Below are positions 46,207-61,680 of a stretch of DNA of 64,000 nucleotides, one piece after another (position 1 is the first letter of the stretch; every line of letters begins with the position of its first letter). The position numbers and the translations under genes were made by a program. Under the pieces are notes generated by a model. It did not search any database, was not told the origin of the DNA, and saw only the letters and a list, made by a program, of their open reading frames with translations. Source of the DNA: an uncultured Gemmatimonadaceae bacterium (GTDB lineage Bacteria > Gemmatimonadota > Gemmatimonadetes > Gemmatimonadales > GWC2-71-9). The stretch is from assembly GCA_964585655.1 (NCBI GenBank), contig CAZPER010000002.1:18727-82726 (forward strand). Direction: 5' to 3'.

Positions 46207-48105
46207 CTAGGGGACGTCGCTCCCCTGACCTTCCGCCACACGTTTCAGAAACGTCACCAGCCCGTCCCGCACCGCGAGCGCATAGGCCAGCTGCCCCGCC
46301 GGCTGCCGGAGTGCGGCCTCCTGGTCCGGCAGCATCATGAAGAACCCCTCGCACAGCACGGCTGGCATCCAGGTAGGGCGGACCAGCGCCAGGTCGCCGC
46401 GCGCGGCTCCGAGGTCCCGCAGCCCGAGGCGCCGAACCAGTGCGGCCTGGATGTCCTGGGCCAGCGGCAGGCTCCGGGGGTGATAATAGAAGACACTCGA
46501 GCCGTTGTTGGTGAACGGGTTCACGCCATCCGGCAGCGCGTTGTTGTGAATCGATACCAGCAACTCGGCACCGAGCGAGTCCGCGAACCGGGTCCGGGCA
46601 TTGAGGTCCAGGCTTTCGGTGCCCCGCCGGGTCAGGATCGGCTGCGCGCCGGCGGCCTCCAGCAGCCGAACCAGCTCCAGGGACACGGCGAGGTTGGCGT
46701 CGGCCTCCTTGAGCCCGGTGGGACCGGTCGCGCCCAGCGGCGGGTGGCCCGGGTCCACCACGATTCTCCGGCCCCGAAGGGGCGCCGCGCCATCCACCAC
46801 CGGCGGCCGGCGCACTTCCAGCAGCAGGTCGTTCCCGCTCCAGCGAGTCCGATAACCCCACACCGGACCCGCGACATCCAGGGTGATGGTGACCTCGTCG
46901 CTCGCCGCCTGCAGCCAGCGGATCTGCCGCAGGTAGGGATCGTTGGCGCCGTACCGGATCCAGTTGATGTCGCCCACGGTGTTGTAGAGCCGCAGCGTGA
47001 GCCCGCCCTTCGCTTCCTCAACCCGGAACGGTATCCGCGCCGTGAGCGGCACCCGGACCACGACCCGGTCGGTGGCCGGAGTGGCGGTAAGGGAGAGCAC
47101 GGTGGCGCGGAGCGCGGGGCTCCCGGCGGGCAGCGGCACCAGATCCGCCGCCGGCACCCAGGCCTCCTGCTGGCGGGAGAGCCGGATGCGCGCGTCGTCT
47201 CCCAGCCGACCCGTGAGCTGGGCGCGGGTACCGGTCGGGAAGAACCAGTGGTAGGTCGCGCCGGGGCGCGCCCGTCCCACCGTCAGGCTGTCGGTGGTGC
47301 CGCTGCCCGCCGAATCGTCGTTCAGTTCGACCATCACCGGGAGGGTATCAAGCAGGGTGACCTCAAGCGGCCAGCGCAGCCGGACGGTATCGGCGCCACG
47401 GATCGCTTCGATGACAGCGCCCGTGGAGTCCCCCGGAAGGGCCTGGCCGCGGATGGCGCCAACGTAGCGTTCCGCACGCTGTGGCGCGAGGAGGTTTGCG
47501 GTGTCCCGGTCAAAGGCCCGGATCCCCCACGCAACCTCCCCGGGCCCCCGTTCGGCGGCGAGCGGGACCACGGCGCCACCGGGGAGCAGCAGGCGGACCT
47601 CGGCACCCTCGACGGCGCGGAGACTGACGGGGAGGTACTCGTCCCGGGGCCACCAGACCCGGCCCCCCGGACTGAGGCTGAGACTATCCACCCAGACCGG
47701 CGCGGCCGGGGGGCGGAAGCGGGGGACGGTCCGGAGGGAATACTGGTATCGCAGGGTGTCGGCGCCGGCGGTGGCCACCAGGGCGAAAGCCGGCGCGGAA
47801 TCCGGGGGGAGCGGCACCCAGGCCAGCCAGGCGCCATTGGGCCAGACCTTCACCGCCGCGTCATTGATGGTGAGCAGGGCCCGGCCGGTGCCGACGGTTC
47901 CGAACAGGAAGGTCGAGTCCCGGGCGTCCACGACGTCCCGGGGCCCGGGATAGACCACCCGGATCTCGAGCGGGCCATCCACCGTGGGAACCGGCGGGAG
48001 TCGGGAACCGTCTGGCGGGAGGGGACCGGGGGCGGATCCCGGCCGGGCGCAGCCAGCCAGGAGGAGGAGCGCCAGGGCGAGACCGCCGCGCACCGCAAGG
48101 GGCAT
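46207..48105 (-). CDS. N-acetylmuramoyl-L-alanine amidase (Amidase_3/AmiC-type) lipoprotein with long N-terminal domain
   Basis: ORF trimmed to MPLAVRGGLALALLLLAGC (lipobox). C-terminal VVDPGHPPLGATG...SIHNNA...EGFFM amidase_3 motifs. Confidence 0.8.
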   Translation of the reverse strand: MPLAVRGGLALALLLLAGCARPGSAPGPLPPDGSRLPPVPTVDGPLEIRVVYPGPRDVVDARDSTFLFGTVGTGRALLTINDAAVKVWPNGAWLAWVPLPPDSAPAFALVATAGADTLRYQYSLRTVPRFRPPAAPVWVDSLSLSPGGRVWWPRDEYLPVSLRAVEGAEVRLLLPGGAVVPLAAERGPGEVAWGIRAFDRDTANLLAPQRAERYVGAIRGQALPGDSTGAVIEAIRGADTVRLRWPLEVTLLDTLPVMVELNDDSAGSGTTDSLTVGRARPGATYHWFFPTGTRAQLTGRLGDDARIRLSRQQEAWVPAADLVPLPAGSPALRATVLSLTATPATDRVVVRVPLTARIPFRVEEAKGGLTLRLYNTVGDINWIRYGANDPYLRQIRWLQAASDEVTITLDVAGPVWGYRTRWSGNDLLLEVRRPPVVDGAAPLRGRRIVVDPGHPPLGATGPTGLKEADANLAVSLELVRLLEAAGAQPILTRRGTESLDLNARTRFADSLGAELLVSIHNNALPDGVNPFTNNGSSVFYYHPRSLPLAQDIQAALVRRLGLRDLGAARGDLALVRPTWMPAVLCEGFFMMLPDQEAALRQPAGQLAYALAVRDGLVTFLKRVAEGQGSDVP

Positions 48106-48150
48106 GGGCTGCAAGGTACACGGCCACCGCGACTTACGGCAGATCATCCG

Positions 48151-48179
48151 TTGACGCTCCACGCGCGCAATCCTAGATT
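48151..48179 (+). promoter_or_regulatory. candidate sigma70-type promoter for the FHA-kinase-phosphatase operon
   Basis: TTGACG (48151-56), 17-nt spacer, TAGATT (48174-79), ~115 nt upstream of the FHA gene ATG. Confidence 0.4.
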
Positions 48180-48292: not shown

Positions 48293-49210
48293 ATGTCACC
48301 ACCGGCGCCGGAGGTCTCGCGCGGCCCGGCGGGTGCGGGCGCCAGCGTGAAGTGTCCGAGCTGCAACGCCGGCGTCGCCGCCGACCTGCCCTTCTGCGGC
48401 CAGTGCGGCACCCGGCTGACCCAGGCGCGGGCGGCGCACGCCTGTACACGGTGCGGCCGGCTGAACGAACAGGGCTCCAAGTTCTGCCCAGCCTGCGGGG
48501 CCGCCTTCGGCAACACCGGGCCGCAGCCCCAGGTCCCCGCCGCCCCGCCCAAGAGCGGCGGGCCCGTCACGGCGCACCTTGCCCTGCTGGACCGGGGCGG
48601 CCAGGTGGCGCAGCGTTTCCCGTTGCTCAATGCCGTGACGACGCTGGGCCGCCAGGGGGCCGACGTCAATTTCCCCGATGATGATTATCTCTCGCCGCTG
48701 CACGCCCAGTTCCTCCTGATCGACGGCATCCTGACCCTCCGGGACCTCGGCAGCAAGAACGGCACCTGGCTCTACCTCGATGAACCCCACAAACTCACCG
48801 ACGGAGATCTCATCCTCCTCGGCAGCCAGATCCTCCGCTACCGCCGGCTCGGCTATCCCGGGCCCCGTCCCCCGGAGCAGGACCAGACCCGGCGGCTCGG
48901 GAGCCTGACGCCGGCGGCGGATATCGCCAACCTGGCCCAGGTCCGGGGCGACGGCAGCGCCCGGGATATCCTGACCCTTTCCCCGGGTCGGTCGGTGCGG
49001 GTGGGCCGGGAGCAGGGTGACTGGCAGTTTCCCTACGACTCCTCGATGAGCGCCCTGCACGCCCTCATCCGGAGCGAGGACGCCGACTTCGTCCTGGTGG
49101 ACGCCGGGAGCCGGAACGGCGTGGCCGTCGCGGTGAAGGGGGAGCGGCGGGTGCCGCCCGGTGCGCGGCTCCTCGCCGGCGACCAGATGCTCCGCGCGGA
49201 GATCGGATGA
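48293..49210 (+). CDS. zinc-ribbon plus double FHA-domain protein
   Basis: ATG at 48293. CPSC...CGQCG and CTRCG...CPACG ribbons. Two FHA cores (TLGRQGADV...SPLHAQ...LRDLGSKNGT and RVGREQ...SALHA...VDAGSRNG). Confidence 0.8.
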   Translation: MSPPAPEVSRGPAGAGASVKCPSCNAGVAADLPFCGQCGTRLTQARAAHACTRCGRLNEQGSKFCPACGAAFGNTGPQPQVPAAPPKSGGPVTAHLALLDRGGQVAQRFPLLNAVTTLGRQGADVNFPDDDYLSPLHAQFLLIDGILTLRDLGSKNGTWLYLDEPHKLTDGDLILLGSQILRYRRLGYPGPRPPEQDQTRRLGSLTPAADIANLAQVRGDGSARDILTLSPGRSVRVGREQGDWQFPYDSSMSALHALIRSEDADFVLVDAGSRNGVAVAVKGERRVPPGARLLAGDQMLRAEIG

Positions 49211-50949
49211 AGGTCTGCACCACCTGCGGCGCCGAGTACGGCGACGAGAAGCTGTTCTGCGAACGGGATGGCACCTCGCTCCGGAAGTCGGGAGGGGCGG
49301 GCGATCTCGTGGGCCAGGTGATTGCCGAGCGGTACCACATCACGAAGAAGCTGGGCGAGGGCGGGATGGGCCAGGTCTACCTGGCCGAGCATGTGAAGAT
49401 GGGCCGCCGCTGCGCCATCAAGATCATGACCCCGGGGACGATGAGCGACCCGGACGCGATCAGCCGCTTCAACCGCGAAGCCGCCAACGCCAGCCGCATC
49501 AGCCACCCCAATGTCTGCGCCATCTACGATTTCGGGGAGACGCCCGACGGGCTGATCTACCTCGCGATGGAGTACATCGAGGGGAAGAGCCTGAGCGGGC
49601 TGATGGAGGAGGCGGGGACGCTGCCGCTGGCGCGCGCCGCGCTGATCGTCACCCAGACCGCCGAGGCGCTCCAGGTCGCCCACGACCTCGGCATCGTCCA
49701 CCGGGACCTCAAGCCCGACAACATCATGGTCATCACCGCCCGCGGGAAGGACACCGTAAAGGTGGTGGACTTCGGCATCGCGAAGGCGATCGGCGGGGAC
49801 GACGGCAGCGCCCAGAAGGTCACCAAGACCGGTTTCGTGGTGGGGACGCCGGAGTACATGAGTCCGGAGCAGCTCTCCGGCGACCCGGTGGACGGCCGCA
49901 GCGACAACTATTCCCTGGGCCTGGTCTTCTACAAGATGCTGACGGGGGCGAGTCCCTTCCCCGCCGACAGCCAGCAGGAGACGATGATCAAGCGGCTGAC
50001 GGACGATCCGCTGCCGCTGGCGGCGGCCCGGCCCGACGTCCGCTTCCCGCCCGAGCTGCAACGGGTCATGGACCGGGCCCTGGCGCGGAGCCCGGCGGAG
50101 CGCTATCGCACCGCGGGCGACTTCGCGCGAGAAGTGAAGGGCCTCTCCAGCGTCCTGACGGGACAGGTGGATGCCGAGGCCGGCACCCAGGTGGTGCGGC
50201 CGGAGGACCTCAAGGCGGCGGTGCCGGCCACCCGGGTGGACCCCGCGGCGGGCCGGGCGGTCAAGCCGGCGCCCAAGACCCAGCCGGCGTCAGCGGCCCC
50301 GGGCAGCGCTCCCGCCGGTTCGCGCCTGCCGGTGGTGCCCATCGCGATCGCCGTAGCGGTGCTGGCCGTGGGCGGTGGGGGCTACGCGTTCAAGGACGCC
50401 ATCTTTGGTGCGGCGCCCGCGGACTCCGGCGCGGTGCAGGATACCAGCCGGCTGGCGGGTGGGACCCCGATCGTCCCGGAAACCACCGCGGTCGATCCCG
50501 GCACCACACCGGGGCCCGTGACGCCGCTGAGCGGGCGGGACACCGCCACCAAGCCGCCGCAGCAGGGCGGCGGCCGACCGACGGGGGGGCAGACCAACCC
50601 CGGTGGCACGCCGACGAATCCGGGCGGCACCCCGACGAACCCGGGCGGCACCAGCACCAATCCTCCGGTGACGCCGGACAATGGGGCGCTGGAGCGCCAG
50701 GTCCTGGCGTACTATGACGACCTCGGATTCGAGGACGATCCCAGCAAGCGCCTGGAGGCGCGGCGGCTGGGCCAGCAGGTGTTCACCATCACCGCGATGC
50801 CCCGCCCGGTCCGGGCCAAGGCGGCGTGGCTGGTCATGCAGGGGTATCTCAAAGAGGGCAACGCCGACAAGGCACGGGAGTGGCTCGATCACGCGATCGA
50901 ACTCGACCCGTCTCAACAGTCCTGGAAGACCGTCCGGGCGCAGATGTGA
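49207..50949 (+). CDS. Ser/Thr protein kinase with N-terminal zinc ribbon, TM helix and extracytoplasmic Pro/Thr-rich plus helical-repeat domain
   Basis: CTTCG...FCERDG; HRDLKPDNIM, DFGIAK, GTPEYMSPEQ; TM VVPIAIAVAVLAVGGGGY. ATGA overlap with the FHA gene. Confidence 0.85.
   Translation: MKVCTTCGAEYGDEKLFCERDGTSLRKSGGAGDLVGQVIAERYHITKKLGEGGMGQVYLAEHVKMGRRCAIKIMTPGTMSDPDAISRFNREAANASRISHPNVCAIYDFGETPDGLIYLAMEYIEGKSLSGLMEEAGTLPLARAALIVTQTAEALQVAHDLGIVHRDLKPDNIMVITARGKDTVKVVDFGIAKAIGGDDGSAQKVTKTGFVVGTPEYMSPEQLSGDPVDGRSDNYSLGLVFYKMLTGASPFPADSQQETMIKRLTDDPLPLAAARPDVRFPPELQRVMDRALARSPAERYRTAGDFAREVKGLSSVLTGQVDAEAGTQVVRPEDLKAAVPATRVDPAAGRAVKPAPKTQPASAAPGSAPAGSRLPVVPIAIAVAVLAVGGGGYAFKDAIFGAAPADSGAVQDTSRLAGGTPIVPETTAVDPGTTPGPVTPLSGRDTATKPPQQGGGRPTGGQTNPGGTPTNPGGTPTNPGGTSTNPPVTPDNGALERQVLAYYDDLGFEDDPSKRLEARRLGQQVFTITAMPRPVRAKAAWLVMQGYLKEGNADKAREWLDHAIELDPSQQSWKTVRAQM
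50596..50658 (+). repeat. 3 x 21-nt in-frame tandem repeat (NPGGTPT) inside the kinase gene
   Basis: aaccccggtggcacgccgacg / aatccgggcggcaccccgacg / aacccgggcggcaccagcacc. Confidence 0.8.
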
Positions 50950-50955
50950 GGCAAC

Positions 50956-51978
50956 TTGGCTAACGTGCACATCTCCGTCTTCGGCAAGACCGACGTGGGC
51001 AAGACCCGCGATCACAACGAGGACACCTTCCTCGTCGCGGACCTGACCCGGAAGGCCGCGAGCCTGCAACCCGACGTGCGCGAGCACGATGTCGGACCGC
51101 GCGGCACCCTCTTCATGGTCGCGGACGGCATGGGCGGGGCGGCCGCCGGCGAGGTCGCCAGCCGCATGGCCGCCGACCTGGTCTTCAGCCACATGTCGAC
51201 CGTCTGGACCGAGGACAGCGACGTCAGCGCCCAGCGCTTTGCCTACCGGATGAAGGAGGCGGTGGAACTGGCCAACAACCGGATCCACCTCCACGCCAAG
51301 GACCACCCCGAAGTCCGGGGCATGGGCACGACCGCCACGGTGGCCGGCGTCTTCGGGAGCGATCTGTACCTGGCTCAGGTCGGTGACAGCCGGGCCTACC
51401 TGATCCGGAAGGGCGCCATCACCCAGATCACCAAGGACCAGTCGCTCATGCAGCGGCTGGTGGAGGCCGGGGAGATCACCGAGGAGGAGGCCGAGCAGAG
51501 CGAGCGGCGCAACATCATCCTCCAGGCCCTCGGCCCCGACCCCCGGGTCAAGGTGGACCTCACCTACCAGCCCCTCCGCCGAGGCGACCTGCTGCTGCTG
51601 TGCTCCGATGGACTGTCGGGACAGGTCAAGAAGGAAGAGATGGCCCAGCTGGTCGCCGAAGGGGGCGAACTGGTGGACATCTGCTCGCGGCTCATCACCC
51701 TGGCCAACGAGCGGGGGGGCCCCGACAACATCACGGCGATCGCCGCTCGCTTCGGCGGCGACGGCCTGCCCGAACCGGACGGCAGCGCCGAGGTGGGCCA
51801 CCAGGTCTATCCGCTCACCGAGGCGGAGGCTACCACCGAGCCGGTCCCCGTGTACACCGGAAGCCCCGCGCCCGTGCCCATCAGCGAGCAGCCGGCCCAG
51901 CCCCGGCGCACGGTGCTCGGGCTGCTCGCGCTGCTCGCGCTGGCCGCCGCGCTCTACCTCGCGTTCGGTGGCCGGTGA
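50956..51978 (+). CDS. PP2C-family Ser/Thr phosphatase with C-terminal TM anchor
   Basis: GKTDVGKTRDHNED, MVADGMGG, DNITAI. TTG start at 50956 (GTG alternative at 50965). Confidence 0.85.
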   Translation: MANVHISVFGKTDVGKTRDHNEDTFLVADLTRKAASLQPDVREHDVGPRGTLFMVADGMGGAAAGEVASRMAADLVFSHMSTVWTEDSDVSAQRFAYRMKEAVELANNRIHLHAKDHPEVRGMGTTATVAGVFGSDLYLAQVGDSRAYLIRKGAITQITKDQSLMQRLVEAGEITEEEAEQSERRNIILQALGPDPRVKVDLTYQPLRRGDLLLLCSDGLSGQVKKEEMAQLVAEGGELVDICSRLITLANERGGPDNITAIAARFGGDGLPEPDGSAEVGHQVYPLTEAEATTEPVPVYTGSPAPVPISEQPAQPRRTVLGLLALLALAAALYLAFGGR

Positions 51979-51991
51979 CGGGCCGCCGCCC

Positions 51992-53446
51992 ATGAAAGCC
52001 CAGTTCACGTTCATCTCCGGCGCCCGCGCGGGCCAGACCGACGTCTTCAGCCAGGCCCACATCAGCATCGGCCGGCACCCCCAATCCGAACTCCGCTTCG
52101 ACGCCGACCAGGACCTGGACGTCTCCAGCCGCCATGCATCCGTCACGCTGGTGGGGGAGTTCTACGTCCTCCGGGACCTGGGCAGCACCAACGGCACCTT
52201 CGTCAATGGGAAGAAGCTCACGGGTGACCATATGCTGGCCACCCGCGACATGATCCGCTTCGGGCCCAGCGGCCCGCAGGTGGAATTCACCGCGATCGGG
52301 GCTCCGGGGCCCGGCGCCGGCAGCTCGACGCCGGCCGCGAAACCCGAAGGCACCGTGGTGTTCGGTCAGCAGCCCCCCGCCCCGCCACCGCCTCCACCAC
52401 CGCAGCTCTCCCCGGAGCAGATGCGGAGCCCGCGGCGCACCCCCGGGCCCGGCACCCAGACCAAGGTCCGGATGGAAGTCCGGCGCCAGACCAAGGGGCT
52501 CCGGACCACCACCATCGGGCTCTTCGGCCTGCTGGTCGTGCTCGCCGGCGCCTACCTCTGGCAGGTCCGGGCCGCCGACCAGGCGCTGGCCGACCAGCGG
52601 CGGGCGCTGCTCGGCCAGGTGGACAGCCTGATGCAGGAGATCGGCGCCATCGTCCAGGGCAACGAGGGGCTCAGGGCGGCGCTCGACTCCTCCCAGGCCG
52701 AAGCGGAGCGGCTGCGCCAGATGCTGGCCAATGCCCCGGACCAGGACCGGATGGCGGAGCTGCGCACCCGGCTGGAGCAGGCGCTCCGGCAGCAGCGTTC
52801 GCTGGCCGGCGCGGCCTCCGTGGATGCCCGCGGGATCGCCGCGGCCAATCGTGACGCCATCGCCCTGGTGTTCGTGGAATTCCCCGATGGTCGGGTCATC
52901 ACCGGCACCGCGTTCGCGGTCCGCTCCGACCCGAACGGCGGGCTGCTGATCACCAACAAGCATGTGGTGGTGGACTCCAACGGCACCGTCGCCAGCCGGC
53001 TCGGGGTGGTGTTCGAGGGCTCCCGGCAGAACTTCCGCGCCGACCTGGTGCGGGTGTCACCGGACGCGGACGTGGCGCTGATCCGTGCCTCAGTGCATCG
53101 TGGCTTCCCGGTGGTGAAGTCCCTGGCGGACAGCGGACGCGTGGTGGAAGTGGGGGAGGCGAGCGCGGTGCTCGGCTTCCCGCTGGGGCTCGACCTCGCG
53201 GGCGGGCGGGATTGGAGCCAGATCGGGGTGGCGAGCACGCTCACGCTTGGCACCGTGTCCCGGATCCTCCCCGACCTGGTGCAACTCGACAGCTATGGCG
53301 CCCAGGGTTCGAGCGGCAGCCCCATCTTCGACCGCAACGGCAGCGTCATCGCCGTGCTTTACGGCGGCCAGCCCGGCAGTAATGGCCGCATCCTCTACGG
53401 TGTACCGATTCGCTTCGCCCACCGGCTCCTTTCCGATAGTGAATAA
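51992..53446 (+). CDS. FHA domain - TM - coiled coil - trypsin-like (S1) serine protease fusion protein
   Basis: ORF 51608..53446 trimmed to MKAQFTFISG. FHA core SIGRHP...SSRHA...LRDLGSTNGTFVNG; TM IGLFGLLVVLAGAYLW. Catalytic triad contexts TNKHVV, DADVALI, GSSGSPIF. Confidence 0.75.
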   Translation: MKAQFTFISGARAGQTDVFSQAHISIGRHPQSELRFDADQDLDVSSRHASVTLVGEFYVLRDLGSTNGTFVNGKKLTGDHMLATRDMIRFGPSGPQVEFTAIGAPGPGAGSSTPAAKPEGTVVFGQQPPAPPPPPPPQLSPEQMRSPRRTPGPGTQTKVRMEVRRQTKGLRTTTIGLFGLLVVLAGAYLWQVRAADQALADQRRALLGQVDSLMQEIGAIVQGNEGLRAALDSSQAEAERLRQMLANAPDQDRMAELRTRLEQALRQQRSLAGAASVDARGIAAANRDAIALVFVEFPDGRVITGTAFAVRSDPNGGLLITNKHVVVDSNGTVASRLGVVFEGSRQNFRADLVRVSPDADVALIRASVHRGFPVVKSLADSGRVVEVGEASAVLGFPLGLDLAGGRDWSQIGVASTLTLGTVSRILPDLVQLDSYGAQGSSGSPIFDRNGSVIAVLYGGQPGSNGRILYGVPIRFAHRLLSDSE

Positions 53447-53492: not shown

Positions 53493-56400
53493 ATGATGGT
53501 GGGGATGCCCCCCCGTCCCATGGCTGTCCTGCGCGCGAAGATGGACCGCCTCCTGAGTCGCGCCGCGCTCGGGGGCGCGTTGCTGTTCGTGGTCGGGGTC
53601 GGCGCGGGCACCTGGTGGACCCTGGACCGGATTCACGAAGCGGTCCGCCAGTCGGTGCAGACCGGCCTCACCACCGTCCTGGCCAACGCCCGCGAGGCCA
53701 CCCACCACTGGGTCACCCGGCAGCAGGTGCTGGTGGCCGGGCTCGCTTCGGACCGTGGACTCAGCCGGGCGGTGGAGCGGCTGCAGGATCCTCGTGCCAC
53801 GCGCCGGGCGGAGGCGGAGGCGATCACCACGATTGGCGCGGCGCTGGAGCCCGCCGTCCGCGCCAGCACCCTGCAGGGCTTCTGGATCCTCTCCCCCGAA
53901 GGCCACCCGCTCTACCGCTGGCCCGACACCCTCCCGGCCGACCTCCCCGTGGCCATGCAGGAGCCGTTCGAGCGAGCCCTCGACGGCCTCCCCACCCTCA
54001 GCTCCTTCGCGACGGATACGGTTCGTCCCGGACCCGTCGCCGCGCTGGCGCCGATCCGGGACGCGCACGGTCTTCCGATCGCGGCGCTGGCACTGGCCCT
54101 CCCCGCCCGGACAGAACTGGAGCAGATCGCCGCCCAGAGCCATCACCGGGCGCTGGGGCAGGTCTATTTCTTCGACCGCACCGGGCGGATTCTCGGGACC
54201 AGCATGGCCCCGGAGCCCTGGGGGGACGACGCCCGCCTGGTGGACCCCGGAACCGGGCGGCTCACGCGGATGGCCCAGGCGGCGATCGCGGGGCGCACTG
54301 ATCTCGACCTCGACGGCTACACCGATCACCGCGGGGAGCGGGTGGTCGGAGCCTGGGAGTGGGACCCCGAGCTGGGCATCGGCATCGCGGTCGAGACCCG
54401 TGCCGCGGACGCCTACCACGTCGTCGAGACGGCCCGGAGTGCCCTGCTGGCGGCGCTGGCCATTACGTTGCTGCTCTTCCTCGCGGTGCTGGCCAGCGTC
54501 ACCCAGGCCCGGCGCCGGGCCCTGGCCCTCACGGCGCTCCAGCATCGCCTCGCCGCGGTGCTCGAGTCTACCACCGACCCGGTCTGCTTTGCCGATGAGC
54601 TCGGCGCGCCCATCTACCTCAACGAGGCCGGCCGGGCGCTCCTGGTGGGCCCCCACGGCTCGCCGGTCGCCGCGATCGCGGCGGCGCAGGTACTTCTGCG
54701 TCCGGAGGCGCGGGAGGCGGCGCAGTTGCATGGCACCTGGAGCGGAGAGAGCACCATGCTCACGGGCGACGGGCGGGAACTCACCCTGTCCCAGGTGCTG
54801 ATCTGCCACCGCACCGACGCCGGCGTGGTGGATTTCTACTCTACCCTAGCGCGAGACATCACAGACCGGAAGCGGCTCGAGCGGCGGCTGTCGGAGGAGA
54901 AGGAGCGGGCCGAGGTGACGCTCGGCTCGATCGGCGACGCGGTGATCCGGACCGATGCCGCGGGCCAGATCGAGTACCTGAATCCGGTGGCCGAGGAGCT
55001 GCTCGGCTGTCCCGCCTCAGAGCTGGCGGGCCGGGGGATCACGTCGGTCCTGACCCTCGCGCACGAGTCCACCCGGGAGCCGCTGGAGAATCCGGTGGAG
55101 ACGGCCATCCGCGAGCGACGGGTGGTGGGCCGGTCCAACTTCTCGCTCCTCATCCGTCCCGATGGCCGGGAGTTCGCGATCGACGAGAGCGCGGCCCCCA
55201 TCACCGGCGGCGACGGCGAGATCCTCGGCGCGGTGTTCATCTTCCACGACGTGAGCCGGGCCCGGAGCCTGGCGCGGCAGCTGGCGCATCAGGCCAGCCA
55301 CGACTTCCTCACCGGCCTGGTCAACCGGCACGAATTTGAGCGGCGGGTGGGCCGGGCCCTGACCCGGGCACAGCAGGAGTCGGTGACACACGCCCTCTGC
55401 TTCCTCGACCTGGACCAGTTCAAGGTGGTGAACGACACCTGCGGTCACGTCGCCGGGGACGAACTGCTGCGCCAGCTGGCGCAGGCGCTCACCAAGAAGG
55501 TGCGCCGGCGGGACACCCTGGCACGGCTGGGCGGCGACGAGTTCGGCGTGCTGCTCGAGCACTGCGCCCCCGGCCAGGCCAGCCGGGTCGCCCAGGAGCT
55601 GCTGGCCACGATCCAGGAGTTCCGGTTCTCGTGGGAGGGGAAGCCCTTTGCCCTGGGTGTGAGCATCGGCGTGGTGCCGATCACGGCGGAGAGCGAGAGC
55701 CTCGCGACCATTCTCCGCGACGCCGACGCCGCCTGCTACGCCGCCAAGGAGCGGGGCCGCAACCGGGTGCATATCTACGAGACCAACGACGTGGAGCTGG
55801 CGGTGCGCCAGGGCGAGATGCAGTGGGTCAGCCGGATCACCAGCGCGCTGGAAGAGCACCGCTTCCGGCTCTACGGCCAGCCGATCGTCCCCCTCGTCAC
55901 CCGGCCCGGCGAACCCCAGCGGGTGGAAGTGCTGCTGCGGATGGTGGATCACGACGGGACGCTGATCGCCCCGGGGGCCTTCATCCCGGCGGCGGAGCGC
56001 TACAACCTGATGGGGGCGGTGGATCGCTGGGTGGTGCGGGAGGTGACGGCGCTCTACGAACGGGCGGGGGCCCAGGGCACCGTGCCGATCGCCTCGATCA
56101 ATCTCTCCGGGGCCTCGCTCGGCGATCCGACGATGCTGACCTTCGTCCGGGAGCAGTTGGCGCGGCATGCCCTGAGCCCCGACACCCTCTGTTTCGAGAT
56201 CACCGAGACGGCCGCCATCGCCAACCTCGCCCTCGCGGCGCATTTCATTCGCGAGCTCAAGGCGATGGGGTGCTGGTTCGCCCTGGACGACTTCGGCAGC
56301 GGCATGTCGTCCTTCGCCTACCTGCAGAGCCTGCCGGTGGACGCGCTCAAGATCGCCGGGGCGTTCCTCCGCCACATTGAGACCGACCCGATCGAATACG

Positions 56401-56660
56401 CCATGGTGGAGGCGATCACCCGGGTGGGCCACGTGATGCGGCTCAAGGTGGTGGCGGAAGGGGTGGAGAACCTCAATACGCTGGACACCCTGCGGGCCAT
56501 CGGCGTGGACTACGCGCAGGGCTTCGCCATCGCGGAGCCGAGCCCGCTGGAGCCGCTGGTGCTCGGCCCCGGGCTCAAGGTGCTGGGCGGCGGAGCAGCA
56601 GGGCGCCGAGGGCCAGCATCACCCCCAGGATCCCCACGCTCCAGACCAGCCATCGCCTGA
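53493..56660 (+). CDS. membrane sensor diguanylate cyclase/phosphodiesterase (periplasmic sensor, PAS, GGDEF, EAL)
   Basis: Two TM helices flank a ~270-aa periplasmic domain. PAS-like regions, RLGGDEFGVLL (GGDEF), EITETAAI and LDDFGSGMSS (EAL). The last ~30 codons overlap the convergent SSF gene. Confidence 0.85.
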   Translation: MMVGMPPRPMAVLRAKMDRLLSRAALGGALLFVVGVGAGTWWTLDRIHEAVRQSVQTGLTTVLANAREATHHWVTRQQVLVAGLASDRGLSRAVERLQDPRATRRAEAEAITTIGAALEPAVRASTLQGFWILSPEGHPLYRWPDTLPADLPVAMQEPFERALDGLPTLSSFATDTVRPGPVAALAPIRDAHGLPIAALALALPARTELEQIAAQSHHRALGQVYFFDRTGRILGTSMAPEPWGDDARLVDPGTGRLTRMAQAAIAGRTDLDLDGYTDHRGERVVGAWEWDPELGIGIAVETRAADAYHVVETARSALLAALAITLLLFLAVLASVTQARRRALALTALQHRLAAVLESTTDPVCFADELGAPIYLNEAGRALLVGPHGSPVAAIAAAQVLLRPEAREAAQLHGTWSGESTMLTGDGRELTLSQVLICHRTDAGVVDFYSTLARDITDRKRLERRLSEEKERAEVTLGSIGDAVIRTDAAGQIEYLNPVAEELLGCPASELAGRGITSVLTLAHESTREPLENPVETAIRERRVVGRSNFSLLIRPDGREFAIDESAAPITGGDGEILGAVFIFHDVSRARSLARQLAHQASHDFLTGLVNRHEFERRVGRALTRAQQESVTHALCFLDLDQFKVVNDTCGHVAGDELLRQLAQALTKKVRRRDTLARLGGDEFGVLLEHCAPGQASRVAQELLATIQEFRFSWEGKPFALGVSIGVVPITAESESLATILRDADAACYAAKERGRNRVHIYETNDVELAVRQGEMQWVSRITSALEEHRFRLYGQPIVPLVTRPGEPQRVEVLLRMVDHDGTLIAPGAFIPAAERYNLMGAVDRWVVREVTALYERAGAQGTVPIASINLSGASLGDPTMLTFVREQLARHALSPDTLCFEITETAAIANLALAAHFIRELKAMGCWFALDDFGSGMSSFAYLQSLPVDALKIAGAFLRHIETDPIEYAMVEAITRVGHVMRLKVVAEGVENLNTLDTLRAIGVDYAQGFAIAEPSPLEPLVLGPGLKVLGGGAAGRRGPASPPGSPRSRPAIA

Positions 56661-58221
56661 AGTCGCGGCCCAGATCGTCGAGCGGGGGAAGCCCCGTCGC
56701 GGCTCGCTGCGGCCCCCACGCTCCCCCGGGCCGGACCCGGCGGTAGAAGCCTTCCAGCACCTCGGGGCGCTCCGGCGGCGTGAGCAGCATGACCGGCAGC
56801 CACACTGCGAGGCCCCCTAATGCGGTCAGGGCCAGCTTGATGCCGAAGCCGAGCGCGGCGTAGGCGGGGATCAGGCTCGCGAACGCGATGACCAGGGCCG
56901 ACGCCATGGCGGCGATCTCCGCCCAGGCGTTGATCCGCCACCAGAACCAGCGCAGCAGCAGCACCAGCCCCGGCCCGGTGCCGATCAGGATCAGGAACCG
57001 GAACACCGTGCCCACGTCGTCCATGAAGAACGACACCGCGGCCGCCAGCACGGTGAGCCCGATGGAACACCAGCGCGCCGCCGCCATCAGCTTGCGCTCC
57101 TCCGACACCCCGGCGAAGCGGGCGTAGAGGTCATTCACCAGGTAGCTGGCGCCCCAGTTGACCTGGGTGGAGACGGTGGACATGAATGCCGCCAGCAGGC
57201 TGGCGAAGACCAGCCCGAGGAGCCCGGGCGGGAGGTACCGCAGCATGAGAATGGGATACGCCAGTTCCGGATCCTCGAGCCCCGGCAGCAGGAGCAGCGC
57301 CGCCAGCCCCACCAGGATCCAGGGCCAGGTCCGCACCACGTAGTTGAGGATGTTGAAGGCGTGGGTCGCCCGCTCCGCCTCACGCTCGTTGGCCGTGGCC
57401 GACAGCCGCTGCACGAACATCCCGCCGCCGTCGCTGTTGCGGAACGCCCACCACTGGATGCCCAGGTACCCGAGCAGCGTGGTGAGCGGCAGGAGCGCGT
57501 CCTCGCCACGGGGCACCAGCTGCAGGTGGGCGCCCTTCCCCGCCGCATGCAGCCCCTCCACCATCGCGCCGAGGCCGCCCACCTCGTGCAGGGCGTAGAA
57601 CATGACGATGAGCGCCCCGGCCATCGCCAGCACGTACTGCATCAGGTCGGTTACCACCACGCCCCAGAGCCCGGCGACGGCGGTGTAGGCCACCGTGATG
57701 ATGACGATTGGCATGATGGCCCAGAGGCGGTCATCCCCCGGCAGCCCTTGCAGGTTCTGCAGCAGCCCCAGCCCCTCCATGACCTTCCGCAGCGCCAGCA
57801 TGCCGTAGCCGATGGAGATGCAGTTGAGCGGCACGGCGAACAGGAAGGCGCGGAACCCGCGCAGGAAGGCCGCCGGATTCCCGCCGTACCGGATCTCCGT
57901 GAGCTGCAGGTCGGTCATCACATTGGCGCGGCGCCAGAGCTTGGCGAGGAGCACCGCCAGCAGCACATGGGCCAGCGCAAAACACCACCATTCCCAGTTG
58001 CCGGCGACCCCACGCCGTGCCACCACCCCCGCCACATACAGCGGCGTGTCCACGTTGAAGGTCGTGGCCGCCATCGAGGTGGCGGCCAACCACCACGGAA
58101 TTGCACGGCCGCCGACGAAGAATTCGGCCATGTTCTTCGCGCCCCGGCGGGCCACCCAGAGCCCAAGCGCCAGGCTGGCGCCGAGATACAGCGCGACGAC
58201 CATCCAGTCGAGCAGGGTCAT
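56575..58221 (-). CDS. sodium:solute symporter (SSF) family transporter, last gene of the murQ-anmK-nagZ operon
   Basis: ORF trimmed to MTLLDWMVVALYLG. Co-linear with the CDS at 15787..17556 along its whole length. ATGA overlap with the nagZ-like stop. Confidence 0.8.
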   Translation of the reverse strand: MTLLDWMVVALYLGASLALGLWVARRGAKNMAEFFVGGRAIPWWLAATSMAATTFNVDTPLYVAGVVARRGVAGNWEWWCFALAHVLLAVLLAKLWRRANVMTDLQLTEIRYGGNPAAFLRGFRAFLFAVPLNCISIGYGMLALRKVMEGLGLLQNLQGLPGDDRLWAIMPIVIITVAYTAVAGLWGVVVTDLMQYVLAMAGALIVMFYALHEVGGLGAMVEGLHAAGKGAHLQLVPRGEDALLPLTTLLGYLGIQWWAFRNSDGGGMFVQRLSATANEREAERATHAFNILNYVVRTWPWILVGLAALLLLPGLEDPELAYPILMLRYLPPGLLGLVFASLLAAFMSTVSTQVNWGASYLVNDLYARFAGVSEERKLMAAARWCSIGLTVLAAAVSFFMDDVGTVFRFLILIGTGPGLVLLLRWFWWRINAWAEIAAMASALVIAFASLIPAYAALGFGIKLALTALGGLAVWLPVMLLTPPERPEVLEGFYRRVRPGGAWGPQRAATGLPPLDDLGRDFRRWLVWSVGILGVMLALGALLLRRPAP

Positions 58222-59651
58222 TCCGGGCTCCCCCGGCGCACCCCGAGCCAGCGGGCCACCGCGTGCTGCATCAGCGGCTGCCGGTGCCACGCCACCAGCA
58301 CCGGCGGACCCGCCGGGATCTCCGCCAGCAGCCGTTCGTGGGCAAAGAGCACCACCAGCGCCGCGCCCGGCACCGACACGGCCAGCGCCGCGCGCGATTC
58401 GGGGCCGAAGCCCGCCCGCCCCTTGGCCGCGCGGGGCTCGGCGAACGCCAGCGCCACCCGCGGCGCTCCCTGGCGTTCGAACACGCCGCGGGCGGCGAGC
58501 CGCCGCCGTACGAGGTCACTCGGGCCGGGGGCGTACCAGCCACCCTGGTCGTCGTCAATCACCTGCAGCTCGAAGCCGCCGGAGAGATCCGGGATATCGC
58601 CCCGGTGCAGGCCTGCGGCGAGCAGCCGCGCCGCGACCGCCTCGGCGCCGACATGGTCAGGCGCGACGGGTGTCGGCCCCTGGTCCACGGCGGAGACCGC
58701 CGCGTCGTACCGGGCGAGGGATGCCAGCACCTGGGCCGCCGGCAGCGTCCCATCCGCCGCCGCGGTGCTGAGCGCGGCGATGGTCCCCGGGATGTCCCCG
58801 GGATAGAGCAGGAGGTCACAGCCGGCGCGGATGGACGCCACCGCGGCCTCCGGCTCTCCCCGGCCGGCGCGGGCGCCGCTCATGATGAACGCGTCGGTCA
58901 CGATCAGCCCCTGGAAGCGGAGCCGGGTGCGGAGGTGCCCCAGGATCACTGACGAGGAGGTGGCGGGCGCGCCGCTGGGATCCCAGGCGGGGAACGCCAC
59001 ATGCGAGGTCATCACCGCGCCGACGCCCGCGGCCACCGCCGCCCCGAACGGAACGAGGTCACTGGATTCGAGTTGGCTGAGCAGGAGGGGGACCGACGGC
59101 AGGGTGTCATGGGAGTCGTGCCGGGTCCGGCCGTGGCCGGGGTAATGCTTGGCGCAGGCGAGCACGCCCTCCCGCTGGCAGGCCTCGATCCAGGCGGCCA
59201 CCTGCCGTCCCACTCGCGCCGGGTCCGGGCCAAATGCCCGGGTCTGGACGATCGGGTTCTCGGGCTCGAGGTCGAGGTCGGCCACCGGGGCGAAGACCCA
59301 GTTGATCCCGACCGACCGGGCGTCCCGTCCGGTCGTGGCGCCCGCCCAGATGATCACCCCGGGATCGTCGAGCGCGGCCAGGGCCCGCGGAGGTGGCACC
59401 TCCGTGAGTCCCCGCGCCTGCTGTCCGGCGCCTCGCTCGAGATCGGCGCCGATCAGGACCGGGCGGCCGGCGGCGGCACGGATCTCCGCGGTGAGGGCCG
59501 CGACCTCGTCGGCGCGGGCACCCGGAACCCCGAAGATGATGAAGCCCCCGACCCCCAGCTCGAGCGCCTGGCGCATGGCCTCGAGTTCGTGATGGAAGCC
59601 GGTCTCCCGGCGCCAGCGAAGGGCCGGAAGGACCAGGCGGGCGAGGGTCAT
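58218..59651 (-). CDS. nagZ: glycoside hydrolase family 3 beta-N-acetylhexosaminidase (NagZ-like) with C-terminal extension
   Basis: ORF trimmed to MTLARLVLPAL. KHYPGHG and VTDAFIM motifs. ATGA overlap with the anmK stop. Confidence 0.8.
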   Translation of the reverse strand: MTLARLVLPALRWRRETGFHHELEAMRQALELGVGGFIIFGVPGARADEVAALTAEIRAAAGRPVLIGADLERGAGQQARGLTEVPPPRALAALDDPGVIIWAGATTGRDARSVGINWVFAPVADLDLEPENPIVQTRAFGPDPARVGRQVAAWIEACQREGVLACAKHYPGHGRTRHDSHDTLPSVPLLLSQLESSDLVPFGAAVAAGVGAVMTSHVAFPAWDPSGAPATSSSVILGHLRTRLRFQGLIVTDAFIMSGARAGRGEPEAAVASIRAGCDLLLYPGDIPGTIAALSTAAADGTLPAAQVLASLARYDAAVSAVDQGPTPVAPDHVGAEAVAARLLAAGLHRGDIPDLSGGFELQVIDDDQGGWYAPGPSDLVRRRLAARGVFERQGAPRVALAFAEPRAAKGRAGFGPESRAALAVSVPGAALVVLFAHERLLAEIPAGPPVLVAWHRQPLMQHAVARWLGVRRGSPE

Positions 59652-60757
59652 GCCGGGGTCACCTGCCCCAGGACCCGGGGACCGGTGGCCCCGGTGGCGG
59701 TCACGACATTGGCCGGCTGGCCGTGAATGGTGAGGTAACCCAGCAGCGCGAACGCCACCGCCTCCTTGGCGTCCCCATTGAAGAAATGATCCTCGAACCG
59801 GCTGAGCCGCAGCCCCCGCGCCCCGAGGAGCGCCGCCAGCCGTTCCCGCAGCACCGGGTGATGCAGGCCGCCGCCGGAGACGACGACCTCGGGCGTCCCC
59901 GGCACCCAGCGGGCGATCGCCTCGGCGACGCTGCGGGCCGTCAGCTCCACGGCCGTGGCCACGCCGTCGGGGCCGGGCGCTTCCCGATGCATCCGCTCCG
60001 CCACCGCGAGCCCGAAGCGTTCCCGCCCGGTGCTCTTGGGGGGCGGAGCGGCAAAGAACGGATCCGCGAGCAGGTCCGCGAGCAGCGCCTCGCGCACCCG
60101 GCCGCGGCGCGCCAGTTCGCCGTCGTGATCGAACCGGAGCGATCGATCCACCATCCGGGCGACCGCGTCCACCAGCGCCACGCCGGGGCCGGTGTCGAAC
60201 GCCAGCACCCCCGCCTCCTCGGCCCGCCGGGGGACGTAGGTCAGGTTCGCCATCCCGCCCAGGTTGAGCAGCACCCGCGGCAGCTCCGCGTGCCCGAAGA
60301 GGAGCACGTCGGCGATGGGCACCAGCGGCGCGCCCTGCCCTCCCGCCGCGACGTCCCGCGCGCGGAAGTTGCTCACCACGCGCACCCCAAACCGTTCCGC
60401 GAGGATCGCGGGTTCCCCCAGCTGCCAGCTGGTGGCCGGCGGCTCGTGCCAGATGGTCTGCCCGTGCATGGCGATGAATCCCAGGTCGGAGGCGCGGGTG
60501 TGGGTCTCGCCGAGCACCGCCTCCACCGCCTCCGTGGCCCACTCGGAGAGCCGCACGTGCAGCAGCGCCAGCTCCCGTGCCCCGCCCGCCGCGATGGCGG
60601 TGAGGATCTGTTCCCGCTCCGCCGCGCTGTACGGCCGGCTCTCGAAGCCGAGCAGTTCACACCTGGTGGGGCCGTCGAGGCGGACCAGGGCGGCGTCCAC
60701 CCCGTCAAGGGAGGTACCGGACATGAGTCCCACCGCCAGTGTCGGGCGCTCGGTCAT
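59648..60757 (-). CDS. anmK: anhydro-N-acetylmuramic acid kinase
   Basis: ORF trimmed to MTERPTLAVGLMSGTSLDGVDAAL. GGQGAPLVP and NLGGMANL motifs. ATGA overlap with the murQ stop. Confidence 0.85.
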   Translation of the reverse strand: MTERPTLAVGLMSGTSLDGVDAALVRLDGPTRCELLGFESRPYSAAEREQILTAIAAGGARELALLHVRLSEWATEAVEAVLGETHTRASDLGFIAMHGQTIWHEPPATSWQLGEPAILAERFGVRVVSNFRARDVAAGGQGAPLVPIADVLLFGHAELPRVLLNLGGMANLTYVPRRAEEAGVLAFDTGPGVALVDAVARMVDRSLRFDHDGELARRGRVREALLADLLADPFFAAPPPKSTGRERFGLAVAERMHREAPGPDGVATAVELTARSVAEAIARWVPGTPEVVVSGGGLHHPVLRERLAALLGARGLRLSRFEDHFFNGDAKEAVAFALLGYLTIHGQPANVVTATGATGPRVLGQVTPA

Positions 60758-61680
60758 GGCGCCACCACCGCGGGCGGGTCGCCGACGATGGCCCGGAGGT
60801 GGCCCTGGTGTTCGGCCAGGAGCCGGGTGGCCTCCGCCAGCGAGACCCCCCGCCGCTGCATGACGATGGCCGGCTTGACCTGCCCCTCCGCGGCCTGGAG
60901 CAGCACCCGCGCGGCTTCCCGTCCGATCCCGGTCGTTTCCATGAGGATCCGTTCGCTCCGGTCCTGGAGCTTGGCGTTCCACGCCTTGAGGTCCACCATC
61001 AGGTTGCCGTAGGTCTTCCCCAGCCGGATCATCGCGCCGGTGGTGAGCAGATTGAGCGCCAACTTGGTGGCGGTCCCCGCCTTGAGCCGGGTGGACCCGG
61101 TGACGACCTCCGGCCCCACCAGGAGGGTGATGCAGACGTCGCACTGCTCCCGGAGGGATGGCGGCGGCTCGGAGCAGCTCACCAGGGCGGTCCGCGCCCC
61201 GAGCGCCCGCGCCCGCCCCAGCGCCGCCCCGACGAACGGCGTGGTCCCGCTCGCCGCGATGCCGATCACGACGTCCCCCGCGCCCACCCGGTGGGCGTCC
61301 ATCGCCGCCGCCCCGGCGCCGGTATCATCCTCGGCGCCCTCCACCGACCGGAACATGGCTTCCTGGCCGCCCGCGATGATCCCCACGATCATCCCGGGGT
61401 CGGTGCCAAAGGTCGGCGGGCACTCGGCCGCATCGAGCACGCCGAGCCGGCCGCTGGTGCCGGCCCCGACGTAGAAGAGGCGGCCTCCGGATCGGAAGGC
61501 CGCCTCGAGCAGCTCGATGGTCCGGGCGATCTCCGGCTTCATCCGCGCCACCGCCTCAGGCACCCCCGCATCCTCGGCGGTGACCAGGTCCACGATCTCG
61601 AGTGGGGTGGCGCGGTCGATCTCCGCGGTGCGCGGGTTGCGTCGCTCGGTGAGCCGGGAGTCGAGGAAGGTATCGGTCAT
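60754..61680 (-). CDS. murQ: N-acetylmuramic acid 6-phosphate etherase
   Basis: TERRNPRT, SIS motif YVGAGTSGRLG, CPPTFG, 308 aa. Confidence 0.9.
   Translation of the reverse strand: MTDTFLDSRLTERRNPRTAEIDRATPLEIVDLVTAEDAGVPEAVARMKPEIARTIELLEAAFRSGGRLFYVGAGTSGRLGVLDAAECPPTFGTDPGMIVGIIAGGQEAMFRSVEGAEDDTGAGAAAMDAHRVGAGDVVIGIAASGTTPFVGAALGRARALGARTALVSCSEPPPSLREQCDVCITLLVGPEVVTGSTRLKAGTATKLALNLLTTGAMIRLGKTYGNLMVDLKAWNAKLQDRSERILMETTGIGREAARVLLQAAEGQVKPAIVMQRRGVSLAEATRLLAEHQGHLRAIVGDPPAVVAP

Follow-up and report, generated by a model that had tools for sequence, protein, structure and literature searches.

Can threonine phosphorylation in the bacterial cytoplasm control proteolysis on the other side of the inner membrane? 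This question is raised by a gene in a 64,000-nucleotide stretch of DNA (hereafter the window) from an uncultured Gemmatimonadaceae bacterium (NCBI GenBank assembly GCA_964585655.1, contig CAZPER010000002.1, positions 18,727 to 82,726 of the forward strand). The gene encodes a protein, which we call the FHA-protease, in which an FHA domain that would read phosphothreonine (pThr) is joined through one transmembrane helix to an HtrA-like S1 serine protease domain. It lies next to genes for a receptor Ser/Thr kinase of the Hanks type and a PP2C phosphatase. How Hanks-type kinases reach extracytoplasmic targets and how HtrA-like proteases lacking a PDZ domain are regulated are both poorly understood, and a pThr reader and a periplasmic protease joined across one membrane pass would link the two questions. 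We consider inside-out control of periplasmic proteolysis by threonine phosphorylation to be the best overall explanation of the locus, and, reasoning from sequence, we give it a probability of about one half.

The gene is a real and conserved one of the order Gemmatimonadales. Its open reading frame runs on the + strand from the ATG at 51992 to the TAA at 53444-53446 and encodes 484 amino acids, in a window with a G+C content of about 70%. All 38 aligned homologues begin with M[KR]AQF at this ATG, which is therefore taken to be the true start. A longer in-frame open reading frame from 51608 was rejected as the gene start, since it runs into the PP2C gene and the homologues begin at 51992. The source records of close homologues carry the names Gemmatimonadetes, Gemmatimonadota or Gemmatimonadales. 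The original prediction, made from the DNA letters and their translations, had quoted the motifs SIGRHP, SSRHA, GSTNGTF, PPAPPPPPPPQ, TNKHVV, DADVALI and GSSGSPIF, and all of them are found in the protein. The domain order that it gave (FHA, poly-Pro linker, transmembrane helix, helical region and S1 fold, with no PDZ domain) is likewise borne out by Pfam, hydropathy and AlphaFold2. The parts of the gene are as follows (pLDDT is the AlphaFold2 confidence score, the predicted local distance difference test).

51992..53446, + strand: gene 4 of the operon, the FHA-protease of 484 amino acids, arranged as FHA, linker, transmembrane helix, helical stalk and S1 protease (Pfam, alignment, AlphaFold2, Foldseek, phmmer)
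51992..52297, + strand: predicted cytoplasmic FHA domain, residues 1-102, with G27, R28, S45, H48 and N67 (Pfam; GarA/OdhI alignment; pLDDT >90)
52298..52510, + strand: disordered Pro-rich linker and basic juxtamembrane helix, residues 103-173 (pLDDT <50 for 105-160)
52511..52567, + strand: single transmembrane helix, residues 174-192 (hydropathy, 38/38 homologues)
52568..52858, + strand: predicted periplasmic stalk of four helices, residues 193-289, showing heptad-like periodicity (AlphaFold2, shuffling)
52859..53443, + strand: predicted periplasmic HtrA-like S1 protease domain without PDZ, residues 290-484 (Pfam, phmmer, Foldseek)
52961-52963, 53069-53071 and 53312-53314, + strand: codons of the catalytic triad residues H324, D360 and S441, respectively

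At the N-terminal end, the Pfam FHA family PF00498 matches residues 24-91 with an E-value of 4.1e-16 and 59.6 bits, above its gathering threshold of 20.7. The domain aligns best to GarA/OdhI, and G27-R28, S45-x-x-H48 and N67-G68 match the pThr-contact positions of those proteins. These contact residues are invariant in the 38 homologues and at least 90% conserved in a wider set of 113 family representatives that reach down to about 32% identity. The expectation that the domain reads pThr is thus upheld by both the alignment and the family conservation, and this end of the protein looks functional rather than like a pseudo-FHA domain. AlphaFold2, run on the 38-sequence alignment (mean pLDDT of 78.6), builds an FHA sandwich from residues 1-102 with pLDDT >90, followed by a disordered, Pro-rich linker at 105-160 with pLDDT <50. 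Two threonines on the C-terminal side of the FHA domain stand out as candidate phosphorylation sites. The motif RQT167xxLR, in the juxtamembrane helix, is widely conserved among the 113 representatives, and GT121xVF, in the disordered linker, is invariant in the close clade (at least 52% identity). A family-wide role for GT121xVF as a self-recognition site of the GarA type was rejected, since the motif occurs in 2 of the 113 wider representatives; it stays a clade-specific candidate only.

On which side of the membrane does each end lie? A single hydrophobic segment was found, at residues 174-192, with a Kyte-Doolittle value of 1.84 over 19 residues, and exactly one such segment is found in 38 of 38 homologues. 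The lysine and arginine count around this segment averages 4.7 in the N-terminal flank and 3.3 in the C-terminal flank, with the N-terminal side higher in 30 of the 38 sequences. The FHA-protease has no N-terminal signal peptide, and its helix comes only after some 170 residues that include a folded domain. A single transmembrane helix, a more basic N-terminal flank, the lack of a signal peptide and a folded N-terminal region together favor an N-in/C-out topology, which would place the protease in the periplasm. The topology prediction that had been proposed as a check on the gene has thereby been run, and it does not place the protease domain in the cytoplasm; the sequence features favor FHA in and protease out.

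Between the membrane and the protease, the model continues as a long helix (156-218) that includes the hydrophobic segment, and then as a helical region of about 97 residues (193-289) that is divided into four helices at 193-218, 225-246, 251-275 and 279-289, with pLDDT of about 75-80. The heptad periodicity of this region lies above chance, the observed mean contrast being reached by 6 of 500 shuffles. A coiled coil of about 110 residues had been predicted here; its helical character and heptad-like periodicity stand, while its length falls to about 97 residues and its continuity is lost to the breaks between the helices. Because these breaks interrupt the heptad stretch, "helical stalk" is the safer description, and the modeled region is probably such a stalk, either a coiled coil or a bundle.

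The protease domain (290-481, β-rich, pLDDT about 90) is matched by Pfam Trypsin_2 at residues 305-455 with an E-value of 7.5e-19. A phmmer comparison to PDB sequences aligns TNKH324VV with TNDHVI of DegQ and TNAHVV of MarP, DAD360VALI with ETDLAVL and SVDVAIL of the same two proteins, and GSS441GSP with GNSGGA and GDSGGP. The triad residues thus occupy the S1 catalytic positions, as the original prediction needed them to. The nucleophile is S441 (G-S-S441-G-S-P) and not S443. H324, D360 and S441 are invariant in the 38 homologues and at least 90% conserved in the 113 representatives. A Foldseek search with the model matched DegP, DegS-deltaPDZ and HtrA1 with E-values of about 1e-13; TM-scores on target are 0.73-0.83 for chains that hold the catalytic domain only (DegS-deltaPDZ, HtrA1) and lower for full-length DegP chains. 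Judged by its residues, this end of the protein also looks catalytically intact and not like a pseudo-enzyme. Pfam finds no PDZ domain in the FHA-protease, whose chain ends 43 residues past S441; in three further Trypsin_2 proteins that this genome encodes, the search does detect PDZ domains. Since this genome has three canonical PDZ-bearing HtrAs, the FHA-protease is an extra, specialized protease. Taken together, these sequence features give good support to a bitopic inner-membrane protein with a predicted cytoplasmic FHA domain, intact in its pThr contacts, and a predicted periplasmic, PDZ-less HtrA-like protease on a helical stalk. That pThr recognition and an extracytoplasmic active site are directly linked in physical terms, as the original prediction claimed, is a consequence of this architecture; functional coupling of the two ends is not demonstrated by it.

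What does the gene travel with? The survey took in a sample of 151 genomes from across the phylum. Those that are related are not independent, and no statistical claim is made from the counts. Some match to the FHA-protease was found in 76 of the 151, and 64 carry an orthologue, the other 12 being excluded because their match is limited to the FHA part or belongs to a longer paralogue. All 64 fall within the window's own order, where the orthologue occurs in 51 of 71 genomes of the window's family plus the window genome, in 10 of 31 genomes of a second family and in both genomes of a third; it was not found in the 46 sampled genomes of the other nine families of the phylum. A search of the whole sequence library returned at least 290 clusters at 50% identity, with E-values up to 1e-30. 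Two of the 64 orthologues (G045:C1:1144812-1146255 and G007:C9:7053-8466) have their FHA and protease parts in different frames, which could reflect a frameshift, an assembly error or a split gene.

A comparison of coordinates places a PP2C gene directly upstream of the FHA-protease gene, at a distance of 0-290 nucleotides, in all 63 of the other genomes with an orthologue, and thus in 64 of 64 when the window is included. Twenty orthologous loci were compared with 7-kb flanks. Adjacent genes in these loci include the kinase (17/20), a protein with two FHA domains (16/20) and a divergently transcribed amidase (17/20). Nearly all genomes of the order have the PP2C orthologue. Six loci without the protease were examined, drawn from at least three lineages (two genera in the window's family, plus a single genome of a second family). 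All six keep the amidase/PP2C pair, and all six also lack the genes for the kinase and the double-FHA protein, which would lie on the opposite side of PP2C. In genomes without the protease, genes for an AmpG-like transporter of the major facilitator superfamily, NagZ and AnmK directly follow PP2C. Since the genes that flank PP2C on either side occur, or are missing, as a set, this correlated loss argues that the protease is functionally coupled with the kinase and double-FHA genes. It is well supported that a conserved module of Gemmatimonadales has the FHA-protease as its fourth gene, after a zinc-ribbon double-FHA protein, a receptor kinase and a membrane PP2C. In the window, the module and its neighbors are laid out as follows.

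46207..48162, − strand: divergent lipoprotein-like N-acetylmuramoyl-L-alanine amidase, with Amidase_3 at residues 467-635 (Pfam E 3.3e-33)
48151..48179, + strand: match to a sigma-70-like promoter in the amidase/operon gap (9 of 12 positions)
48293..49210, + strand: gene 1, double zinc-ribbon protein with two FHA domains (Pfam FHA twice, E 1.9e-19; Zn_Ribbon_1/DZR)
49207..50949, + strand: gene 2, receptor Hanks-type Ser/Thr kinase (Pfam Pkinase E 1.3e-50)
50956..51978, + strand: gene 3, PP2C phosphatase with a C-terminal transmembrane anchor (Pfam PP2C_2 E 9.9e-15)
53493..56660, + strand: dCache-PAS-GGDEF-EAL gene, 46 nucleotides past the protease stop (Pfam)
56575..61680, − strand: convergent muropeptide-recycling cluster of an SSF permease, a GH3 NagZ-like enzyme, AnmK and a SIS-domain protein (Pfam)

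The start of gene 1 is uncertain, either GTG 48245 or ATG 48293. Its stop codon overlaps the kinase start as ATGA, and the genes that follow are separated by 6 nucleotides (kinase/PP2C), 13 nucleotides (PP2C/protease) and 46 nucleotides (protease/GGDEF-EAL). The promoter match is the sole one in the region, where one was found and 0.4 were expected, and it is a weak match to the consensus; terminator-like sites in the region are at chance level. The kinase consists of an N-terminal zinc ribbon, a kinase domain at 43-300, one transmembrane helix, an ectodomain linker rich in Pro, Gly and Thr, and a TPR-like C-terminal domain. Pfam finds no PASTA domain in it. The amidase has an N-terminal region of about 450 residues with no Pfam match.

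The GGDEF-EAL gene occupies its position solely in four same-genus loci among the 20 examined, which makes it a genus-specific neighbor that probably lies outside the conserved module; it appears to have been inserted recently, separating the kinase module from the recycling cluster. We read the SIS-domain protein of that cluster as MurQ-like. In the NagZ-AnmK-MurQ cluster of the window (56575-61680), an SSF permease occupies the permease position that an AmpG-like transporter of the major facilitator superfamily has in genera without the protease (as at L051:8383-12206, genome G031), which fits a role of the SSF protein as a muropeptide importer in place of AmpG. The cell-wall setting of the locus is conserved.

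Where might the FHA domains of this operon dock? Among 18 kinase orthologues, the activation loop QKVTKTG[LF]V is common to all. The juxtamembrane linker, at residues of about 320-345, is variable apart from two conserved short motifs, E[AG]xTQ[VL][VLI] (17 of 18) and P[AK]TR[VI], whose cores TQ[VL][VLI] and TR[VI] are kept in 17-18 orthologues. Many FHA domains prefer pT-x-x-(I/L/V). A hydrophobic residue lies at the +3 position of the threonine in TQ[VL][VLI] and in TG[LF]V of the activation loop, so both motifs fit this preference; in TR[VI] it lies at +2. These threonine motifs of the kinase are candidate docking sites for the operon's three FHA domains.

Inside-out control could then work as follows. 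The kinase would phosphorylate threonine on itself, at the juxtamembrane TQ[VL][VLI] and TR[VI] motifs or the activation-loop TKT, or on the linker of the protease, at T121 or RQT167xxL, and PP2C would erase these pThr marks. Binding of such a mark by the FHA domain would recruit the protease to the active kinase complex or cluster it there. Clustering, relayed through the transmembrane helix and the stalk, might favor the oligomeric active state that is typical of HtrA-type proteases, and the protease would then cut envelope proteins locally. Cell-wall hydrolases, for instance the neighboring amidase, are the best guess at substrates, because amidase and muropeptide-recycling genes surround the locus and MarP, the closest PDZ-less relative of the membrane-tethered kind whose target is known, has the hydrolase RipA as a substrate. 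The fuller version, in which threonine phosphorylation switches the protease on by clustering and the protease processes peptidoglycan hydrolases such as the amidase, is offered tentatively, as a possibility that is rather less likely than not. If this fuller version is true, it would represent a route from a eukaryote-like kinase to cell-wall remodeling that is without described precedent.

Several points weigh against inside-out control and its details. In three loci (L017, L029 and L030) no kinase gene adjoins the protease and PP2C genes, so the partner kinase may be encoded elsewhere, and the related genomes in the linkage counts are not independent samples. Simple measures, hydropathy and charge counts, stand behind the topology, and the excess of positive charge on the N side is modest (30/38). 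The candidate phosphorylation sites are motifs only, with GTxVF not conserved beyond the close clade, and naming the amidase as a substrate is guilt by association.

How do other explanations fare? The one that survives best would make the FHA-protease a localized housekeeping enzyme: the FHA domain would merely anchor a quality-control protease, itself constitutively active, at a phospho-marked complex, such as one at the division or growth site, so that phosphorylation sets the place of action and not the activity, and the substrates would be misfolded envelope proteins in general. The nearest folds that Foldseek finds for the catalytic domain belong to general HtrA chaperone-proteases, FHA domains are often pure scaffolds, as in the Yop-YscD_cpl-type Pfam match, and allosteric coupling across the membrane has no support here. 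However, the genome already has three canonical PDZ-bearing HtrAs, and the gene is missing from about a third of the sampled genomes of the order and is lost together with the kinase and double-FHA genes, where a housekeeping function would have been retained. We regard this explanation as unlikely, if the least unlikely of the four.

A second explanation turns the protease back upon the signaling pathway itself, with the protease shedding or degrading the ectodomain of its partner kinase, or another sensor, so that the kinase recruits its own down-regulator or activator. The extracytoplasmic linker of the kinase is long and of low complexity and precedes a small TPR-like domain, and it is an unstructured segment of the kind that HtrA-type enzymes cut; the kinase also carries the candidate FHA docking motifs and co-occurs with the protease. 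That three loci keep PP2C and the protease with no kinase beside them speaks against such feedback, as does the lack of support for ectodomain cleavage in the data, and we think it doubtful that this is the protein's role.

Third, the signal could run in the opposite direction, from outside to inside, with the protease sensing an envelope cue in the manner of DegS and cleaving a partner, and with the FHA domain reporting to the kinase pathway, or being regulated by it, only secondarily. DegS and the FHA-protease share a common layout, and DegS-deltaPDZ structures reach TM-scores on target of 0.66-0.83 in Foldseek. The FHA-protease, however, has no PDZ sensor domain, its cytoplasmic domain is a phospho-reader and not an output domain, and there are no genes of the anti-sigma or sigma-E type in the neighborhood, all of which leaves this explanation improbable. 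The least likely rival, for which we see very little chance, is an anti-phage or abortive-infection module. Kinases and trypsin-like proteases are combined in defense systems, and PADLOC-DB gives domain-level matches of the protease to RT-Protease_XI (E 1.8e-10) and of the kinase to PD-T4-6, but these matches are generic and form no system architecture (PP2C and the double-FHA protein match nothing in that database), the gene holds a fixed position in the core genome beside core cell-wall genes across three families of the order, no mobile-element genes are found among the neighboring genes examined, and the protease is predicted to face the periplasm.

If the coupling is real, regulated envelope proteolysis would join the outputs of Ser/Thr signaling, and the module would be a candidate place at which cell-wall hydrolases are controlled, in a phylum on which little experimental work exists.

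Is the fusion itself new? Its domain order had been called unusual, and it does differ from that of HtrA enzymes in having an FHA domain and no PDZ domain. The word is relative, however, given a family of at least 290 clusters and a version with two FHA domains that is also large, and such a fusion was catalogued in 2008. A survey of prokaryotic serine proteases from that year lists FHA-FHA-Tryp for Bacteroides thetaiotaomicron NP_811686.1 (PMC2605481), a protein with the same domain combination as the FHA-protease, which is listed there without topology, operon context or function. JGI pipelines already label family members "FHA protein / S1-C subfamily serine protease". Full-text searches of the literature turned up no functional study of an FHA-protease fusion.

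The FHA-FHA version, of about 700 amino acids, forms a second large family in Gemmatimonadota. It comprises at least 120 clusters (47% identity or more), and both versions coexist in some genomes. One member in Gemmatimonadales (L034:2684-4807, genome G134, contig C14) has 707 amino acids arranged as FHA, FHA, transmembrane helix, long stalk and Trypsin_2, and its divergent neighbor encodes a kinase-like protein of 593 amino acids. A search of genome contigs with this paralogue returned only itself and an FHA-only match in a metagenome-assembled genome of Ardenticatenaceae; 150 Chloroflexota genomes gave FHA-only matches and no FHA-protease, and a second homologue search returned only Gemmatimonadota names. 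Spread of the fusion to other phyla would thus rest on the 2008 catalogue entry (PMC2605481).

Two further proteins have a bearing on whether the membrane-anchored FHA chassis carries other periplasmic enzymes. The window's genome encodes, outside the window (L033:3274-4779, genome G000, contig C5), a protein with an FHA-like domain, one transmembrane helix, a coiled-coil-like stretch and a predicted periplasmic SLT lytic transglycosylase domain (Pfam SLT E 4.5e-23, FHA E 3e-13). In its FHA domain, Thr, Gly and Gly replace the pThr-contact residues Arg, Ser and Asn in a BLASTP alignment, and full-length copies occur solely in the window's genus and a few related genera. As a case of a common chassis with swappable periplasmic enzymes it was rejected: BLASTP homology is confined to the FHA domain, which makes this an analogous layout and not a proven domain swap. 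An apparent variant with a parvulin-type peptidyl-prolyl isomerase (P0323, a JGI metagenome protein of 725 amino acids) was also set aside, as its one short contig encodes the rotamase together with only part of RpiB and a Trypsin_2 that is truncated, so that it is probably an assembly chimera.

Which known systems does the FHA-protease resemble? It shares with DegS, DegP, DegQ and HtrA1 the chymotrypsin fold, the His-Asp-Ser order and the motifs TNxHV, D[LV]A[LV][IL] and GxSGx, and with DegS in particular a periplasmic catalytic domain on an N-terminal membrane anchor. It differs from these HtrA enzymes in lacking PDZ and in having a cytoplasmic FHA region of about 170 residues and a helical stalk of about 97. 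Compared to the HtrA family (MEROPS S1C; NCBIfam TIGR02037 and NF047968), it thus has the triad and the fold without the PDZ domain, and its NCBIfam scores of 42.9 and 42.3 bits lie below the cut-offs of 470 and 416, respectively.

MarP (Rv3671c) of Mycobacterium tuberculosis is also a PDZ-less, membrane-tethered S1 protease that faces the periplasm, and its structures 3k6y and 3k6z are among the best PDB sequence matches (E of about 5e-7). The peptidoglycan hydrolase RipA is a substrate of this periplasmic protease (PMC6628586), and the MarP-RipA pair parallels the cell-wall gene context of the FHA-protease. Unlike the FHA-protease, which has one transmembrane helix, MarP has four, with no FHA domain and no kinase operon, and the MarP model NF033740 scores 38.1 bits against a cut-off of 250.

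The top NCBIfam match is FhaB/FipA (NF049868, E 4.6e-15), although its 56 bits fall short of the cut-off of 125. The actinobacterial cluster fhaA-fhaB(fipA)-pstP-rodA-pbpA-pknA-pknB encodes FHA proteins, one of them membrane-anchored, a transmembrane-anchored PP2C and a receptor Hanks kinase, and is linked to cell-wall growth. The module described here resembles this cluster in its operon form, in its gene content (FHA proteins, a PP2C anchored by a C-terminal transmembrane helix and a receptor Hanks kinase) and in a link to the cell wall. It differs in that FhaB/FipA lacks an enzyme domain and has its domains in reverse order, and in that the Gemmatimonadales locus has no rodA or pbpA and a kinase without PASTA domains, with amidase and recycling genes as its neighbors.

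In two further systems, the ATP-binding cassette exporter Rv1747 with PknF and Fha/TagH of the type VI secretion system with PpkA/PppA, a cytoplasmic FHA domain reads pThr and controls an activity across the envelope. Both resemble the FHA-protease in having FHA on, or bound to, a membrane protein, and both differ in their output, which is a transporter or a secretion system where here it is a protease. The TagH/Fha model TIGR03354 scores 37.9 bits against a cut-off of 120.25, and there are no type VI secretion genes nearby, the neighbors being cell-wall and cyclic di-GMP genes. Among these systems, then, the FHA-protease is a conserved variant, of an architecture already catalogued, that combines a membrane-anchored HtrA-like protease with the FHA reader of a Hanks-kinase/PP2C module.

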